A stretch of DNA of 40,666 bases, from the IMG/VR virus record IMGVR_UViG_2563366836_000013, positions 1 through 40,666 of that record. The stretch is one strand, 5' to 3'. Numbering within the stretch: the stretch's first letter is position 1; every line of letters starts with the position of its first letter. This document shows, piece by piece, positions 5,603 through 25,651 of this stretch. Both the position numbers and the translations under genes were made by a program. This stretch comes from a virus (lineage: Duplodnaviria > Heunggongvirae > Uroviricota > Caudoviricetes). Below the pieces are notes generated by a model. It searched no databases, had not been told where the DNA came from, and saw only the letters and a list, made by a program, of their open reading frames with translations.

Positions 5603-6071
5603 TTTGCTGCTCCTCATCATATCGACCCTGCAAGGCCGATTAGTTTCTCCACAAAACAGAGAAGAACACCTGTGGTGGCCGCCGCCCGGATGGATTGGGT
5701 TATGAGCCCGTCGTCCGGTGATGCTCTTCTCTGTTTTGTAAAAAGGACGGTACCAGCCGGAAGCAAGGGTACAAGCTGGTACCGCCAGGACTACACACAG
5801 CATAAAGTTGTGGTGCCGGGTGCCTCCCGGTGCCTGGCGAAGGTTGCACACCAGGCGGGTGGGTATCCACAGAAGGTCGACTGTCAGCCTCAACCTTAAC
5901 CCGCGTGCGCTGAGCCGCATTCACCACAACGCTAAGGATTCTCTCTGGTTGAAAATACTTAGCTGTTATGTGCCTGCTTTTAGCCACATCAGGCGAGGTG
6001 GACCTGGTTATTCCCCAACAACAAGGATTCGGTTAATCTGGATATCCCCAACAACAATAAGAGTATTCAAT

Positions 6072-6587
6072 GTGATCGCTGAATTAACGGCAGCAATGAC
6101 GGCTATTCGTGAAACAGCCCAGATTGCAAAACTAATGAACGAGGCAAAAACTCAAGCTGAAGTAAATGCGGCTATTGGTGAGCTGAACTCAAAGCTTGCG
6201 TCTATTCAGCGCGAATGCGTGTCTCTCGTTGAACTGGTGGGCTCTTATCAAGAAATAAATGCTTCTCTCAAAGCTAAAATTGCAGAATTCGAAAACTTTG
6301 AGGCTCAGACGGAAGGCTATATCCTTAACCAACTTGAGTCGGGTACTTTTGTATACTCGAAGGAGGTAATCGTGAACGGTGGCAGCATAACCATGCATCT
6401 TTGCCCAAAATGTTTTGGACAAAAGATAGTATCGATACTTCAACCATTCCCGGTTAGCGAAGATGAGCTTTTTCATAAAAGCAGGTGCCTCCACTGTGAA
6501 AATAAGTTTCTGATGAATAAAAATCCGGATTACGTATCGCCTCCATCCATTGAGGAGTTGTCCAGAAAACTTAACGGCAATCTGTAG
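6072..6587 (+). CDS. Orphan coiled-coil / zinc-ribbon protein, unknown function
   Basis: About 171 aa from GTG 6072 (AAGAG upstream; alternative ATG at 6096); N-terminal heptad-like helix, C-terminal CPKC-x24-CLHC; opposite strand to all flanking early-left genes; followed by a hairpin terminator. Confidence 0.5.
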   Translation: MIAELTAAMTAIRETAQIAKLMNEAKTQAEVNAAIGELNSKLASIQRECVSLVELVGSYQEINASLKAKIAEFENFEAQTEGYILNQLESGTFVYSKEVIVNGGSITMHLCPKCFGQKIVSILQPFPVSEDELFHKSRCLHCENKFLMNKNPDYVSPPSIEELSRKLNGNL

Positions 6588-14209: not shown

Positions 14210-14995
14210 ATGTATATATTTGAATTGACCAAACCTGGCAACTGGCTTGAAAGTGAAGACAAAGAGTGGTCTTGGAAAATAGAACGGCTTTTGGACCATC
14301 TTGAATTTGCATTTTATGAGGCTAATGTTGCATTAAATTTATTTATGCAGCAGCAAAACAATCAAATAGAACAACAAGGGGTTTCGCAATTGCAATGGGA
14401 AAAAGAAATGCAAGAACGAAGAACCATCGAAACACTAGTTCGTGAGGAGTTAGGTTTATCCCCTTTTGAGAATCCTGAAAACATACAATTTGAGGTGGAC
14501 GCGAGGTTTAAACGAGAAAAGTGGAGTTCTGGTGAAATTCCACGTAGCCACAAACATTGTGTGATTTTTATTTATGCAAAATCTTTTCTTTATTCTCTTG
14601 ATACTATTGATAAATTTATAAAGGTTATTTCGAATGAACCTTATGCTCCTGAGTCGATAAAAGCCCTACACGATCAGATAGGTAAAGATTTTCCTGATCT
14701 CAGAGGGGTTAGGAATTCAACTCAACACCTCGAAGATAGGGCTCGAGGGCTTGGCGCAGGGAGAGAACCGAAGCCTTTGAATCTCCAGCCTATAAGTAAT
14801 ACCTTCATAAATGCACCGCAAGGTGCTTTGATATTAAATAATCTGAATGGCACCAAATTCGGGTCAACTATATCTGATGGTCACTATGGTGAAGTGGACA
14901 TTTCACCTGAATCGTTATCAAAAATGCAAAGTATTGTTCAGGGCGTTCTTGACTCGTTTAAGTGGGTTGGTAATCAGCAACACTTACCAAGTTAA
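14210..14995 (+). CDS. AT-rich moron protein with HEPN-like R-N-x3-H motif (candidate Abi/defence RNase)
   Basis: 261 aa; low GC compared with flanks; RNSTQH at residues 168-173 fits the HEPN Rx4-6H signature; own TATAAT -10 (14174-14179) and downstream hairpin terminator. Confidence 0.5.
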   Translation: MYIFELTKPGNWLESEDKEWSWKIERLLDHLEFAFYEANVALNLFMQQQNNQIEQQGVSQLQWEKEMQERRTIETLVREELGLSPFENPENIQFEVDARFKREKWSSGEIPRSHKHCVIFIYAKSFLYSLDTIDKFIKVISNEPYAPESIKALHDQIGKDFPDLRGVRNSTQHLEDRARGLGAGREPKPLNLQPISNTFINAPQGALILNNLNGTKFGSTISDGHYGEVDISPESLSKMQSIVQGVLDSFKWVGNQQHLPS

Positions 14996-16746: not shown

Positions 16747-16879
16747 TACACCTGTACCGTGTATACCCAACCCACTGACGTATGGTGCAAGTCTTGATTT
16801 GAATGTAAGTTTGTTATCCGCGTTGGCTCAATGTAATAGGGATAAGTCTGATATCAGAATCATTGATAATCAAAATTGA
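16631..16879 (+). CDS. o-spanin (Rz1-like lipoprotein) in +1 frame overlapping the Rz 3' end
   Basis: MMIVLHILCLLPLLTGCGS lipobox, Pro-rich mature part; starts inside Rz and extends past its stop. Confidence 0.7.
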   Translation: MMIVLHILCLLPLLTGCGSTRTVYVSIPKTPLPVSLTSDTPVPCIPNPLTYGASLDLNVSLLSALAQCNRDKSDIRIIDNQN

Positions 16880-17082
16880 TGTATATTTTTATCGTCATGT
16901 AGATAACGAACAAGGTATTCCTCTGATACGTTTCGTTGAATACAGGTCATGGGTAGGCATTGCAATATCGCTTCGAAATTATCTGTGATAATGCTCTTAA
17001 TTTTGAATGTATGTATTTGGGAAAAGAGATAAAGTAATAGTCTAATTAATGGAGATATCCACAAAACACAAAAGGGACTATT

Positions 17083-17589
17083 ATGCGACCAGATCAATTT
17101 TTCTATCCAGATACTTTTACCTTTAATTCATCCACCTATTATGGTCAACGTGACTCATCTAAAGGTCGATTGTATATTCCTATTGAAAGTGACTTATGTC
17201 CATTTAATATCGGCGATATCATTGTGCAAAAAATGGTCGACAGGGAAAGACTATTTGAAGTGCTTGATTACGAGGTGCAAATTAGTCTCGAGGCTGGTTG
17301 CCCTGGCTACTCACATTTGGCGGTATTGATAGTGAAGGCATTGGATGTAAAAGAGAAGCCGAAGCAGATTACGACCCATTTGACGTTTAACGGTGCTATT
17401 AATGCTGGTGGTGATTTTCAAGCCGGTAATGACAATTCGATCACAAAGAATATAACCATTCAACAACTACATGATGCTATAGAGCATTGCAATGATCCAG
17501 AGGTTAAAAGCCTTTGGCAAAAGCTATTGGAAAATCCGACGTTTGCTTCAATTGCTTCAATATTGGCAAAAAGTGCTTTAGGACAGTAA
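17083..17589 (+). CDS. AT-rich orphan moron protein (168 aa), unknown function
   Basis: Low-GC ORF with AAGGGA RBS, upstream extended -10-like TGtGATAAT and downstream terminator; sits between spanins and HNH/terminase. Confidence 0.55.
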   Translation: MRPDQFFYPDTFTFNSSTYYGQRDSSKGRLYIPIESDLCPFNIGDIIVQKMVDRERLFEVLDYEVQISLEAGCPGYSHLAVLIVKALDVKEKPKQITTHLTFNGAINAGGDFQAGNDNSITKNITIQQLHDAIEHCNDPEVKSLWQKLLENPTFASIASILAKSALGQ

Positions 17590-17597
17590 TTCATCAA

Positions 17598-17621
17598 GCC
17601 CCATTCAATATGGGGTTTTTA
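17598..17621 (+). terminator. Rho-independent terminator after the second moron
   Basis: GCCCCA-TTCAATA-TGGGG hairpin followed by TTTTT. Confidence 0.55.
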
Positions 17622-17646
17622 TGCTTATTACAAAGAGTTTTCTTCA

Positions 17647-17997
17647 ATGCCACCACGAACTCCAAAAGCCTGCCGTGTTCGCGGGTGCCGCCGTACCACC
17701 ACTGACCCGTCAGGTTATTGCGAAAGCCACAAAAGCGAAGGCTGGAAGCAATACAAGCCAGGACAATCCCGTCATCAGCGCGGCTACGGTTCGAAGTGGG
17801 ACGTTATCCGCGCGCGTGTGCTGAAACGTGACAAAGGTTTATGTCAGTTATGTCTGCGCGCTGGTGTGGTGCGTGAGGCGAAAACTGTTGACCACATCAT
17901 CCCTAAAGCGCATGGCGGCACTGATGCCGACTGTAATCTGCAGAGTCTGTGCTGGCCGTGTCATAAGGCGAAGACGGCCCGTGAACGGCTTAAGTGA
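17647..17997 (+). CDS. HNH endonuclease (terminase-associated, HK97-like packaging module)
   Basis: 116 aa with C..C ... H-N-H zinc-finger core (CQLCLRAGVVREAKTVDHIIPKAHGGTDADCNLQSLCWPCHKAKT). Confidence 0.85.
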   Translation: MPPRTPKACRVRGCRRTTTDPSGYCESHKSEGWKQYKPGQSRHQRGYGSKWDVIRARVLKRDKGLCQLCLRAGVVREAKTVDHIIPKAHGGTDADCNLQSLCWPCHKAKTARERLK

Positions 17998-18023
17998 TAA
18001 TAATTCTCAACTGTCTGAGGGGA

Positions 18024-18084
18024 GGGGCGGGTCAAATCTCTGCGGCCTGACGTCTTCCGGACTGCCCGCCCCATCGTTTTTTTA
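18024..18084. other. Inverted repeat GGGGCGGG / CCCGCCCC plus T7 run: candidate cos region or large-loop terminator
   Basis: 8-bp perfect inverted repeat separated by about 33 nt, followed by TTTTTTT; located between HNH and small terminase where HK97-like cos sites lie. Confidence 0.3.
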
Positions 18085-18122
18085 TACCCGCGAAAAATGA
18101 AATTTAACCAGGAGTGCCGCAT

Positions 18123-18617
18123 ATGGCTGGAACGGCGGGGCGTTCCGGGCGTCGCCCCAAGCCAACGGCGCGCAAGGCGCTGGCCGGAAACCCCGGCAAG
18201 CGAGCCCTGAATAAAGATGAACCTGTTTTTACGCCCATCAAAGGTGTTGAGCCACCGGAGTGGTTCGCTGAAGAAGATCTCCCTCTCGCTACGATCATGT
18301 GGCAACTGACAACTAAAGAACTCTGCGGTCAGGGCCTGCTGTGCGTGACTGACCTTGCGGTGCTTGAGCGGTGGTGCGTGGCCTACGAGTTCTGGCGACG
18401 TGCCGTGAAAAATATTGCCAGACAGGGCAACACCATCACCGGTGCAATGGGCGGTATGGTCAAAAATCCGGAGCTGACTGCCAAAAAAGAACAGGAGTCC
18501 GAGATGAGCAGTACGGGGGCAATGCTCGGACTCGACCCCAGCAGCCGCCAGCGTCTGATTGGCCTGGCGGGGAAGAAGAAAGCCACTAACCCGTTTCTGA
18601 AAATCATCGAATCATGA
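18123..18617 (+). CDS. Terminase small subunit (P27 family)
   Basis: [34 protein letters not shown] matches the P27-family TerS N-terminus; AGGAG RBS; ATGA overlap with TerL. Confidence 0.8.
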
Positions 18618-20347
18618 GCCGGAAATCTTACCCCAACGTAAATGCTGCAAATCAGTATGCCCGGGATGTCGTCCGCGGAAAGATTGTTGCCTGCCAGTTT
18701 GTGATTCAGGCCTGCCAGCGCCATCTTGATGACCTGATGGCGGAAAAAAGTAAGTCGTTTCGTTACCGCTTCGACAAGGACCTGGCTGAACGGGCCGCGA
18801 AATTTATTCAGCTGTTGCCGCACACCAAGGGGGAGTGGGCATTCAAACGGATGCCCATCACGCTGGAGCCGTGGCAGCTATTTGTGATCTGCTGTGCGTT
18901 TGGCTGGGTCAATAAAGGCACCCGGTTGCGCCGCTTCCGGGAGGTGTACACCGAAATCCCCCGTAAGAACGGCAAATCAGCAATCTCTGCCGGTGTTGCC
19001 CTGTATTGTTTTGCCTGTGATAACGAGTTTGGCGCGGAAGTGTATTCCGGTGCCACGACAGAGAAACAGGCGTGGGAAGTCTTTCGCCCGGCGCGACTGA
19101 TGTGTAAACGCACACCCATGCTGACGGAAGCGTTCGGGATTGAGGTTAACGCCTCAAACATGAACCGTCCGGAGGATGGCGCGCGGTTTGAACCGCTGAT
19201 CGGCAACCCAGGTGATGGTTCATCACCCCACTGTGCCGTGGTTGATGAATATCACGAGCATGCCACCGATGCGCTTTATACCACAATGCTTACCGGGATG
19301 GGGGCGCGACGTCAGCCACTGATGTGGGCCATCACCACCGCCGGGTACAACATTGAGGGGCCGTGCTACGACAAGCGGCGGGAAGTCATCGAGATGCTCA
19401 ACGGCTCGGTGCCTAACGATGAACTGTTCGGGATCATCTATACCGTTGATGAAGGTGACGACTGGACCGACCCGCAGGTGCTGGAAAAAGCCAATCCAAA
19501 TATTGGCGTGTCGGTTTATCGCGAATTTTTGTTAAGTCAGCAGCAGCGTGCGAAAAATAACGCCCGTCTGGCAAACGTCTTTAAAACAAAACACCTCAAT
19601 ATCTGGGTGTCGGCGCGTTCGGCGTATTTCAACCTGGTGAGCTGGCAGAGCTGCGAGGATAAATCACTGACTCTTGAGCAGTTCGAGGGGCAGCCGTGCA
19701 TTCTGGCCTTTGACCTGGCGCGTAAGCTGGATATGAACAGCATGGCGCGACTTTATACCCGCGAGATTGACGGTAAAACGCATTACTACAGTGTGGCCCC
19801 GCGTTTCTGGGTACCGTATGACACGGTGTACAGCGTCGAGAAAAATGAAGATCGCCGGACAGCCGAACGCTTTCAGAAATGGGTGGAAATGGGCGTTCTG
19901 ACCGTTACCGATGGTGCAGAGGTGGATTATCGCTACATCCTCGAAGAGGCCAAAGCGGCGAACAAAATCAGCCCGGTCAGTGAGTCACCCATCGACCCTT
20001 TCGGAGCGACCGGGCTGTCACATGACCTTGCTGATGAAGACCTGAATCCCGTTACTATCGTCCAGAACTTCGCCAATATGTCCGACCCGATGAAAGAGCT
20101 GGAGGCAGCGATTGAATCGGGACGCTTTCATCATGACGGCAATCCCATCATGACCTGGTGTATCGGCAATGTGGTCGGCAAAAACATGCCAGGTAACGAT
20201 GATTTAGTGAAGCCCGTCAAAGAGCAGGCGGAAAACAAAATCGATGGTGCAGTTGCGCTGATTATGGCGGTTGGCAGAGCCATGCTGTACGAGAAAGAAG
20301 ACACGCTGTCTGACCACATTGAGTCCTATGGGATCCGCTCGCTTTAA
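18614..20347 (+). CDS. Terminase large subunit
   Basis: 577 aa; ATPase and nuclease regions (VDEYHEH Walker-B-like); position between TerS and portal. Confidence 0.93.
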
Positions 20348-23882: not shown

Positions 23883-24206
23883 ATGCTTCTGACAATGGAA
23901 GAGATTAAAGCCCAACTCCGGCTGGATGAGGATTTCGATGCTGATGACCGCCATCTGCAACTGCTGGCCTGTGCGGCACAAAAGCGGACGGAAACGTATC
24001 TGAACCGGAAGCTCTATGCACCGGATGAAACCATTCCGGACAGCGATCCGGACGGGCTGCACCTGCCGGATGATATTCGTCTGGGGATGCTGATGCTTAT
24101 CAGCCATTTTTACGAAAACCGCTCGTCGGTTACGGAAGTGGAGAAACTCGACATGCCGCAGAGTTTTGGCTGGCTTGTCGGCCCGTACAGGTACTTTCCG
24201 CAATGA
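23883..24206 (+). CDS. Head-tail connector (gp6-like / DNA packaging) protein
   Basis: 107 aa, MEEIKAQLRLDEDFDADD... typical of gp6-like connectors; AGAGGG RBS. Confidence 0.7.
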   Translation: MLLTMEEIKAQLRLDEDFDADDRHLQLLACAAQKRTETYLNRKLYAPDETIPDSDPDGLHLPDDIRLGMLMLISHFYENRSSVTEVEKLDMPQSFGWLVGPYRYFPQ

Positions 24207-24613
24207 AAATTCGTCAGGCGCAGACCAGCGCAACCTACATTCTGCCGGACCCCGGTGAACTGAATAAACGCGTCCTGATCCGCCAGCGGGTGGATATGCC
24301 CGCGGATAACTTTGGCGTGGAGCCTCAATACCCGGTTACGTTCCGGACATGGGCGAAGGTTATCCAGACCAGTGCCACCACCTGGCAGGAAACCGCGCAG
24401 ACCGGGGACGCCATCACCCATTACATCACCATTCGTTACCGCCGGGGGATCACTGCTGATTATGAGGTGGTCTGTGATGACAGTGTGTACCGGGTGAAAC
24501 GTCAGCGTGATCTGAACGGGGCGCGGCGCTTTCTGCTGCTGGAGTGTACGGAGCTGGGCGAATGTAGGCAGAGTCACGGAGGCAGCAATGGCGACTCCCT
24601 TTTTTCACGTTGA
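24203..24613 (+). CDS. Head closure / head-tail adaptor protein
   Basis: 136 aa, ATGA-coupled, position after the gp6-like gene. Confidence 0.55.
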   Translation: MKIRQAQTSATYILPDPGELNKRVLIRQRVDMPADNFGVEPQYPVTFRTWAKVIQTSATTWQETAQTGDAITHYITIRYRRGITADYEVVCDDSVYRVKRQRDLNGARRFLLLECTELGECRQSHGGSNGDSLFSR

Positions 24614-25094
24614 TGTTCAGCAGCCCGCCGAGATGCGCTTTAACCGCGCCCGTGTCCGGAGGGCGTTTGTCACGATTGGGCAGCGTCATATGCGTGATGC
24701 CCGTCGGCTGGTGATGCGCCGTGCGCGGTCGGCACCGGGTGAAAACCCCGGTTATCAGACCGGACGCCTGGCTCGTTCGATTGGTTATATGGTGCCGAGA
24801 GCCAGTAAAAAGCGAGCCGGTTTTATGACACGCATTGCACCTAACCAGCGCAACGGGAAGGGGAACCGGATGATCTCTGGTGACTTCTATCCGGCGTTTC
24901 TGTTTTTTGGTGTCCGGGGAGGAGCAAAACGTCGTCGTAGTCATCATCGTGGTGCATCCGGTGGCAGCGGCTGGCGACTGGCTCCACGTAATAACTTCAT
25001 GGTGGAAACTCTTGAAAAGAACCGCAGCTGGACACGCTATTTTCTGGCGCGGGAATTGCGTAAATCACTGAAGCCGGAGAGACGACACAGATGA
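24588..25094 (+). CDS. HK97 gp10-like head-tail joining protein
   Basis: 168 aa basic protein in the head-completion position; family from memory. Confidence 0.5.
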   Translation: MATPFFHVDVQQPAEMRFNRARVRRAFVTIGQRHMRDARRLVMRRARSAPGENPGYQTGRLARSIGYMVPRASKKRAGFMTRIAPNQRNGKGNRMISGDFYPAFLFFGVRGGAKRRRSHHRGASGGSGWRLAPRNNFMVETLEKNRSWTRYFLARELRKSLKPERRHR

Positions 25095-25651
25095 AACTGA
25101 CGCCTGTTATTGCTGCGCTGCGTGCCCGCTGCCCGTATTTTGAAAACCGGGTGGCAGGCGCGGCACAGTTCAAAAATCTGCCGGAGGTCGGAAAGCTGAG
25201 ACTCCCGGCGGCGTATGTGGTACCGGGTGATGACTCTCCGGGAGAAAACAAAAGCCAGACCGACTACTGGCAGGAGCTGAAAGAGGGCTTCTCCGTGGTT
25301 GTCATACTGAGTAACGGGCGTGATGAGCGCGGTCAGTTTGCCTCGTATGATGTGGTGGACGATGTCCGGCAGATGCTCTTTAAGGCTCTGCTGGGCTGGA
25401 ACCCGGAAGCGTGCGGTAACCCGATTACCTATGACGGCGGCACGCTGCTGGATCTGAATCGTCATGAGCTGATTTATCAGTTCGATTTTTCGGTCATCAG
25501 CGAGCTGACCGAAGACGATACCCGCCAGCAGGATGACCTGAACAGTCTGGATGAACTGCAAACGCTGGCGATTGATGTTGATTATCTCGAGCCCGGTAAC
25601 GGGCCTGACGGCGATATCGAACATCACACCGAAATAACCCTTCCTTCCTGA
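25091..25651 (+). CDS. Mu-like tail completion / terminator protein
   Basis: 186 aa; immediately upstream of the Mu-type sheath operon. Confidence 0.5.
   Translation: MKLTPVIAALRARCPYFENRVAGAAQFKNLPEVGKLRLPAAYVVPGDDSPGENKSQTDYWQELKEGFSVVVILSNGRDERGQFASYDVVDDVRQMLFKALLGWNPEACGNPITYDGGTLLDLNRHELIYQFDFSVISELTEDDTRQQDDLNSLDELQTLAIDVDYLEPGNGPDGDIEHHTEITLPS

Follow-up and report, generated by a model that had tools for sequence, protein, structure and literature searches.

A cargo gene of a temperate Escherichia coli myovirus belongs to a widespread family of hypothetical proteins with a RHIM-like linker motif

What does a small AT-rich gene contribute to a prophage when it is situated alone between the lysis genes and the DNA packaging genes? 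The question is raised by the IMG/VR record IMGVR_UViG_2563366836_000013, whose 40,666 nucleotides (nt; the whole stretch of DNA analysed, referred to as the window in the following) are the genome of a temperate E. coli myovirus. The gene in question is an open reading frame (ORF) of 168 amino acids (aa) plus stop with an ATG start (ORF168; 17083-17589; + strand, as are the cassette and domain features located below). An earlier note on this DNA, made from the letters alone, had given it the same extent and had considered it an orphan gene at a frequent site of conversion or exclusion genes. Our analysis supports the view that ORF168 is the gene carried by an independent cargo cassette (a moron) in the hyper-variable slot between the spanin genes and the HNH-terminase genes. 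A function in conversion or exclusion is plausible, as suggested by a RHIM-like motif in the protein sequence, by relatives that share this motif with the product of a neighbouring gene (in one case an AbiTii protein), and by the placement in accessory slots of prophages and satellites.

The gene is no orphan. ORF168 matches PHROG 5789 (function unknown) from end to end (E = 3.3e-79, 265.8 bits; residues 1-168 on profile positions 1-167 of 168), and it possesses many homologues, such that the "orphan" without a family of the earlier note has to be given up. The remote-homology and structure-prediction check proposed in the same note was run; it led to PHROG 5789 and to a larger family, and yielded a model consisting of a barrel, a linker and three helices. 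While a word-indexed search found 22 close clusters (48-99% identity), an exhaustive profile search gave 79 representatives at 50% identity, and a search seeded from a relative of the mainstream branch (i.e., from outside the divergent subfamily to which the window's copy belongs) added 107 more clusters. The family comprises more than 180 sequence clusters. The hosts of these 107 clusters include Klebsiella, Enterobacter, E. coli, Salmonella, Yersinia, Serratia, Citrobacter, Pseudomonas, Halomonas, Vibrio, and others. The source-given name of every named family member is "hypothetical protein"; PHROGs lists the family without a function, and Pfam does not contain it as a domain family. NCBIfam searches over 64 family members gave isolated and weak matches only, and no model accounts for the family. 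One distant relative gave a weak NCBIfam match to the NACHT antiphage protein EruA (E = 6e-4), the member and region concerned not being located after a scan of 10 candidates. PADLOC searches of mainstream relatives and their partner proteins returned nothing except a weak and uninformative Cmr1 match (E = 0.013) in a neighbouring accessory gene. A scan of species-representative genomes with the close-family alignment found nothing, and literature searches on the family and on its accession numbers found no paper.

What the members of this family have in common is most evident from the alignment of 86 homologues, in which only five columns are invariant: Q113, G115, N118, D138, and N151. The last two lie in the C-terminal helical module; the first three, retained in 86 of 86 homologues, are the only family-wide invariant residues of the linker and form the motif core Q113-A-G115-N-D-N118 of the window's protein (17419-17436). 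This Q-x-G-x-x-N pattern has the core spacing of the RHIM type. The stretch GDFQAGNDNSI of the window aligns to xxVQ(V/I)GxxNxx of the rest of the family (xxVQVGNNNSQ in relatives), and the counterpart of the motif segment (aa ~98-126) in mainstream members, the V-Q-I-G version, reads NTFNIGSVSGEQVQIGESNHMLVNISI. At position 112, V is found in 58 and F in 19 of the 86 sequences, and position 114 is occupied by I in 44, V in 21, and A in 19 of them.

The resemblance to RHIM exceeds the spacing in some relatives. One of them (P0098) matches the Pfam RHIM model (PF12721) with 24.9 bits (E = 1.4e-5), the gathering score being 20, and five others (P0051, P0056, P0088, P0094, and L051) reach sub-threshold scores of 10-15 bits; a further match below threshold, of one relative, concerns the Pfam model of the HET-S motif (PF17108). 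When the profile of the C-terminal module was compared with the whole PDB, six weak matches were obtained, two of which are RIPK1 RHIM fibril peptides (E ~0.9). The corresponding alignment, of family sisgeqvQvGneNsqiv to IFNSSGIQIGNHNYMDV, is only concordant evidence.

Concerning the architecture of the protein, two AlphaFold2 runs with inputs of 19 and 86 sequences gave models that agree. A small N-terminal beta-barrel (aa 1-89; 17083-17349), which we propose to be a sensor or binding domain, comprises six strands between aa ~10 and 86 (predicted local distance difference test, pLDDT, 80-93); its fold matches to PilZ, Hcp, and sortase are generic small-barrel matches. It is followed by a linker (aa 90-124; 17350-17454) that contains the RHIM-like segment TFNGAINAGGDFQAGNDNSITKNI and is conserved and at the same time modelled with low confidence (pLDDT ~43-51); within the close family, aa 100-124 are the most conserved region of the protein (mean top-residue frequency 0.79). 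The C-terminal module (aa 125-168; 17455-17586) consists of three helices (~126-134, 139-149, and 152-166). In mainstream members, the tail (TVASIVGAGASALLGLL) has a mean hydropathy of 1.87, is transmembrane-like, and exhibits a G-x3-S-x3-G pattern; among the 86 members, the last 17 residues are transmembrane-like (hydropathy >=1.6) in 61. A sequence search of the PDB with the whole-protein family profile found only spurious helix-cap matches to designed repeat proteins, and neither this profile nor that of the C-terminal module recovered a Bell-type or related helical domain there.

Linker and helices behave as a module. Many representatives match only profile positions ~88-167 (motif plus helices) and have unrelated N-termini; no fewer than six distinct N-terminal domains precede the module, among them a zinc ribbon, winged-helix-like domains, and several unknown ones. 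Some apparent variants were discarded: the N-domain profile matches of the giant proteins P0025 and P0096 are spurious, these being Big_9/cadherin adhesins that match via many weak repeats, and in P0079 (326 aa), an in-frame fusion with a GNAT acetyltransferase, the family part is decayed, such that it is probably a frameshift or fusion artefact and no evidence of effector swapping.

A scan of every ORF of all fetched loci with the family's hidden Markov model showed that 9 of 72 loci, and 11 of 45 metagenomic ones, contain a second motif-bearing gene. The commonest partner, present in E. coli D8 and in other satellites of the type described below, is a protein of ~255 aa encoded immediately upstream on the same strand; it contains the motif and the first two helices (profile positions 87-149; up to 29.9 bits, typically 18-30) behind a different N-domain of ~190 aa, and is devoid of the hydrophobic tail. 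The family protein of these pairs has ~170 aa and a transmembrane-like tail. In the D8 element, the two genes (L071, 5910-6674 and 6704-7213) lie on the strand opposite to the core genes and are both annotated as hypothetical, the accessions of the pair being WP_249531383 and WP_000365446; further pairs of this kind occur at L056, L059, L060, L063, L068, L069, L095-L099, L104, L111, and L114. A second type of partner is the AbiTii-domain protein of L013 (753-1406), which carries the motif at its very C-terminus (ending ...NIGSITGHQVQLGNNNTQ / ...NVNIGSITGHQVQLGNNNTQHKKTAKR) and whose gene is situated 24 nt upstream of that of P0054, a family member with a zinc-ribbon N-domain (1431-1889); this pair looks like a two-gene, motif-sharing abortive-infection module. 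Partners of a third type (L081, 1-423; L085, 4367-5023; L086, 4739-5395), likewise encoded immediately upstream of a full-length family gene, contain NLNIGSLNARNVQVGDQNTM and have a different tail, GLSFGHTVAKFIGLIS. Finally, both types of copy are found in the phage contig L028, the window type after Rz and the mainstream type at a distance of 2 kb, just 5' of the holin gene. Bacterial amyloid-signalling sequences have been defined operationally by a short motif that recurs in the proteins encoded by adjacent genes, and in the same work bacterial proteins with Pfam RHIM hits (BASS3) formed amyloid (doi 10.1101/2020.01.06.895854).

That ORF168 is cargo can be read from the site itself. In an alignment with the prophage of E. 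coli CAVP746, in which the slot is empty, homology is lost at ~16834 and regained at ~17640, so that the replaceable segment (16835-17640, ~800 bp) comprises the 3' end of Rz1, the intergenic region with a promoter-like element, ORF168, and a terminator. The states of the slot were found by a search with the joined flanks (Rz and HNH): in CAVP746, a gap of 26 nt separates Rz1 and HNH (L072, 824-851); in ET791, the slot contains a gene for a GrlR-family regulator (L073, 914-1234), and in GF75 a hypothetical gene of 112 aa on the opposite strand (L074, 887-1225). Along with the cargo, these prophages have exchanged the 3' end of Rz1. Of 5426 complete E. coli genomes, 29 possess the identical cassette, as does one deposited phage, vB_EcoM-689R6; SCU-482 is an example of a lysogen.

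The signals described in the earlier note were recovered at or close to the positions given there. An extended -10-like promoter element, TGtGATAAT (TG, one base, GATAAT), is read from the sequence at 16984-16992; a promoter scan for two hexamers did not report it, because a usable -35 is absent. Homologues in unrelated backbones are likewise preceded, at a distance of 40-45 nt, by TGn extended -10-like elements, the only shared feature seen in the upstream regions, which are not alignable across subfamilies. A Shine-Dalgarno-like AAGGGA (17072-17077) is also read from the sequence and precedes the ATG of ORF168 by 5 nt, in agreement with the ribosome-binding site postulated before. The intrinsic terminator (17596-17623) consists of a 9-bp stem (17596-17618) with a loop of 5 nt and a T run, has a predicted RNA fold of -12.4 kcal/mol (z = -2.9 vs shuffles), and ends ~26 nt before the ATG of the HNH gene (17647). 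The low content of G and C (GC) likewise holds: it amounts to 0.373 in the cassette and 0.391 in ORF168 vs 0.506 in the whole window, and at third codon positions (GC3) to 0.343 in ORF168 vs 0.638 in TerL.

Thus, presence, absence, or alternative cargo at the junction, an own terminator, and a deviant base composition are all found. The assignment as a moron in the slot equivalent to that of lambda bor, as the earlier note had assumed, is made because related junctions vary, being empty or otherwise filled in related E. coli prophages, and because homologues behave likewise elsewhere as lone genes. With lambda Bor and other morons between lysis and terminase genes, ORF168 has in common the same slot, an own terminator and a putative promoter, low GC, and dispensability for the phage. 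In contrast to Bor, an outer-membrane lipoprotein with signal peptide and lipobox, it possesses neither and exhibits no sequence similarity: its N-terminus, MRPDQFFYPDTFTFNSSTYYGQRD, is without a hydrophobic stretch when read from the sequence (MRPDQFFYPDTFTFNSS..., with no hydrophobic h-region and no lipobox cysteine), such that the argument made before against a Bor-like protein stands.

Five or more unrelated backbones contain homologues as single genes, which often lie on the opposite strand and possess terminators of their own. In Serratia prophages, the family gene is a solitary + strand gene flanked by minus-strand injection genes and a primase gene; an epsilon15-like podovirus has it, again alone, between portal and TerL; two lambdoid phages have it after Rz; and one homologue adjoins BstA close to a prophage end. 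In two of these settings, bidirectional terminators directly follow the family gene. Most mainstream copies reside in elements of ~16 kb with integrase, DUF927 primase, capsid, protease, portal, TerS, and TerL, a layout that is that of capsid-forming phage-inducible chromosomal island (cf-PICI) satellites, of which RefSeq-annotated examples exist. There, the family gene is located on the opposite strand between capsid and primase. The accessory regions of satellites are known reservoirs of defence genes (PMC13612085). In some elements (L042, 6829-7434; also L049, L065, and L066), a protein of 201 aa is encoded just upstream of the family gene; it has an N-terminal transmembrane helix and a helical remainder, gave no informative Pfam or PADLOC match, and may be another accessory or defence gene of this slot.

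How might such a cargo protein act? The reading that we tentatively prefer, possible rather than probable, is that ORF168 is an abortive-infection or exclusion effector that would be switched by motif-driven polymerisation, in analogy to Bab/Agp and HET-S. The N-terminal barrel would bind a trigger, probably one of the proteins of an incoming or competing phage; the clustering induced by this binding would allow the Q-x-G-x-x-N segments to stack into an amyloid-like cross-beta assembly, which would free the C-terminal helical module such that its last helix may attack the inner membrane. The infected cell would stop or die before the competitor phage matures, i.e., by abortive infection or superinfection exclusion, to the benefit of the prophage. 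Bab/Agp and HET-S work by the same logic; here, the domain order is inverted and, in the window, all steps would take place within one polypeptide. Amyloid formation, membrane attack, sensing, and an anti-phage outcome are what we infer for ORF168 from this analogy.

The closest known system is Bab/Agp, an amyloid-controlled abortive-infection system (BASS11) from prophage defence hotspots of E. coli (Ibarlosa et al. 2024, doi 10.1101/2024.11.07.622273). Bab has 109 aa, with a hydrophobic helix, a small helical domain, and an amyloid motif of ~20 residues; templating by the motif of its neighbour switches it on, after which it relocates to the periphery of the cell, and defence is lost upon beta-breaker mutations (doi 10.1101/2024.11.07.622273). 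Like Bab, ORF168 is a small protein encoded in a cargo or defence slot of an E. coli prophage, and it has a short, conserved Q/N/G-rich motif beside a small helical module with a hydrophobic helix, the two motifs being compared by description. In relatives of ORF168, and not in the window, the motif is common to the product of the adjacent gene, as it is in Bab/Agp, and the proposed sequence from motif polymerisation via membrane attack to abortive infection would be the same. Differences are the additional N-terminal beta-barrel of ORF168 and the lack of a TPR-GreA/B-PIN (Agp) partner, or of a partner of any kind, in the window.

The other systems are more distant. With RHIM (RIPK1, RIPK3, ZBP1, and TRIF), the fungal PP motif, and BASS3, the family shares the core spacing phi-Q-phi-G-x-x-N and the position of the motif in a segment without predicted fold, whereas the G-phi-Q-phi-G signature is not kept, the upstream G being displaced by 1-2 residues, and an amyloid state of ORF168 is predicted by analogy only. 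Moreover, BASS3 has been reported from multicellular Actinobacteria and Cyanobacteria and not from enterobacterial phages; it is located there C-terminally of Bell domains, with NLRs as partners. In HET-S/NWD2 of Podospora anserina, too, an amyloid motif controls a membrane-targeting helical domain, and the trigger is a motif partner encoded next door, as in the pairs of our relatives; however, HeLo is larger and N-terminal, the HET-s motif differs in sequence and forms a beta-solenoid of two rungs, an NLR serves as the partner, and there is no homology except the sub-threshold PF17108 match of one relative. As to the AbiTii proteins (PF18864), the one at L013 has the same motif at its C-terminus and is encoded directly upstream of a family member, whereas ORF168 has no AbiTii domain and no such neighbour in the window. 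The family is therefore provisionally regarded as a putative amyloid-type signalling module of anti-phage cell-death systems, set apart from Bab and HET-S by its inverted domain order, by the absence of Bell/HeLo similarity, and by the absence of an NLR- or TGP-type partner.

Several observations weigh against a polymerisation-switched effector in the window. The order of domains differs from that of Bab (N-terminal hydrophobic helix, helical domain, and C-terminal motif), as ORF168 consists of barrel, motif, and helices with the hydrophobic helix last, and the order of Bell/HeLo effectors (N-terminal hydrophobic helix and C-terminal motif) is not that of ORF168 either. The window's protein does not match the Pfam RHIM model even at E <= 1, and its core F112-Q-A114-G with N118 lies outside the canonical (I/V)-Q-(I/V/L/C)-G, retaining Q, G, and N. 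As the motif is short, it may have come to resemble RHIM by convergence or because it serves an ordinary beta-strand interaction, and single-chain AlphaFold2 assigns no structure to the linker (pLDDT of the motif segment ~45-50). Besides ORF168, no second motif-bearing ORF was found in the 40.6-kb window, and no NLR/STAND or TPR-GreAB-PIN sensor was seen in the window or in the fetched loci, where the partners are unrelated small domains or AbiTii. Searches of ORF168 in Pfam, PADLOC v2.0, and NCBIfam 20.0 gave no matches, and the gap in the latter two is a further point of this kind. Finally, the tail helix of the window's copy (TFASIASILAKSALGQ) has a mean Kyte-Doolittle hydropathy of 0.98 and is not membrane-spanning by that measure. 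Since the window's subfamily is divergent, with its F-Q-A-G core and weakly hydrophobic tail, the effector step is less secure here than for mainstream members, and for this copy it is the weakest link.

Part of these observations would equally be expected if ORF168 were an accessory protein without an amyloid-type switch, an alternative that we consider doubtful. Q-x-G-x-x-N would then be an ordinary interaction strand or loop, and conversion or exclusion would be brought about by stoichiometric binding through barrel and helices, by a small protein that is cytoplasmic or peripherally bound to the membrane and, e.g., blocks DNA entry or modulates a host process. This would agree with the failure of the window's protein against the RHIM model and with the sub-threshold scores of most relatives, with the fact that short Q/N/G-rich segments are common, with a tail that could be amphipathic (hydrophobic moment 0.68), and with a slot that also takes unrelated regulators such as the GrlR-family protein. 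However, the invariance across the family is concentrated in the core of the linker and not in the folded domains, and one relative passes the RHIM gathering score. Furthermore, neighbouring genes with otherwise unrelated domains have the short module in common, and such sharing is the operational signature from which amyloid-signalling motifs have been defined (doi 10.1101/2020.01.06.895854).

The divergence of the window's subfamily could also be interpreted the other way round: its members may be non-killing decoys or regulators that co-assemble with mainstream members or with amyloid defences of the host, cap or poison their polymerisation, and so protect the phage, which appears clearly unlikely to us. 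The subfamily keeps Q-x-G-x-x-N and the helices without the transmembrane-like tail that prevails in the family; it occurs on phages, the mainstream branch mostly on cf-PICI satellites, i.e., on parasites of phages; and both types meet in L028. Viral RHIM decoys are, moreover, an established means of counter-defence (doi 10.1101/2024.11.07.622273); M45/vIRA of murine cytomegalovirus (MCMV) and ICP6 of herpes simplex virus (HSV), virus-encoded proteins with RHIM-type motifs that block RIPK3 signalling, would be the model, these being large proteins of eukaryotic viruses acting on RIPK3/ZBP1, while an inhibition by ORF168 is hypothetical. Yet the cassette is situated in the late region with a constitutive-looking promoter, whereas anti-defence genes are usually early, and the loss of the tail is not a clean trait of the subfamily, as the tails of its Serratia members are more hydrophobic (mean hydropathy 1.48). 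Mainstream copies were not observed together with ORF168 in the E. coli genomes listed, which is uninformative, since only ~0.4 shared genomes would be expected by chance.

An extension of the decoy idea, which we hold to be more improbable still, distributes the roles over two adversary branches: mainstream copies of cf-PICIs would be amyloid-triggered suicide effectors, as single proteins or as two-gene systems, and the phage-borne F-Q-A-G branch would be a motif-matched decoy that caps their polymerisation. If true, this would be a bacterial counterpart of the herpesvirus RHIM inhibitors of necroptosis, directed by helper phages against their parasites.

That the barrel is a divergent head-completion or neck protein of head-tail joining is scarcely credible, given that Foldseek searches of the PDB and BFVD found no significant match to a neck protein, that hhalign against the phage's own PF05521 head-completion protein gave a probability of 0.3%, that a full connector set is already present at 23883-25651, that close relatives of this prophage lack the gene, and that it lies elsewhere on the opposite strand and outside structural operons.

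The surroundings of ORF168 are in accordance with the position between spanins and terminase module given before. Upstream, the order is Q antiterminator, an ORF of 261 aa with low GC, two holins, GH19 endolysin, and Rz/Rz1; downstream follow the HNH endonuclease, directly 5' of TerS (P27 family) and TerL, and then portal, HK97 protease, and capsid. The packaging trio HNH-TerS-TerL (17647-20347) is also found in cf-PICI satellites that carry the mainstream family gene. The ORF of 261 aa (14210-14995, + strand; GC ~0.39) is the first AT-rich cargo ORF of the window and is situated in a slot between Q and holin; it matches phrog_5322 (function unknown) and gave no matches in Pfam or PADLOC searches. 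In L028, the equivalent slot is occupied by a mainstream member of the ORF168 family (5623-6114, minus strand).

Amyloid-controlled cell death is established in animals (RHIM) and in fungi (HET-S and PP). For E. coli, to our knowledge, an amyloid-controlled defence against phages has been shown in one system only, and recently (Bab/Agp). If our preferred reading of ORF168 as a polymerisation-switched effector is true, a RHIM-like family across prophages and satellites of Enterobacterales, Vibrio, and Pseudomonas would widen the range of amyloid signalling, with an architecture unlike the known cases, i.e., a variable sensor domain, the motif, and a helical tail, and with motif-sharing neighbours in some members. 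It would also provide a very small, genetically tractable model (168 aa), and hundreds of "hypothetical proteins" would receive a name. If the likeness of the motif is coincidental, the result would be an ordinary one, namely a well-delimited moron of unknown function in a polymorphic slot. For this prophage, the analysis pinpoints a likely cargo gene for exclusion or abortive infection.

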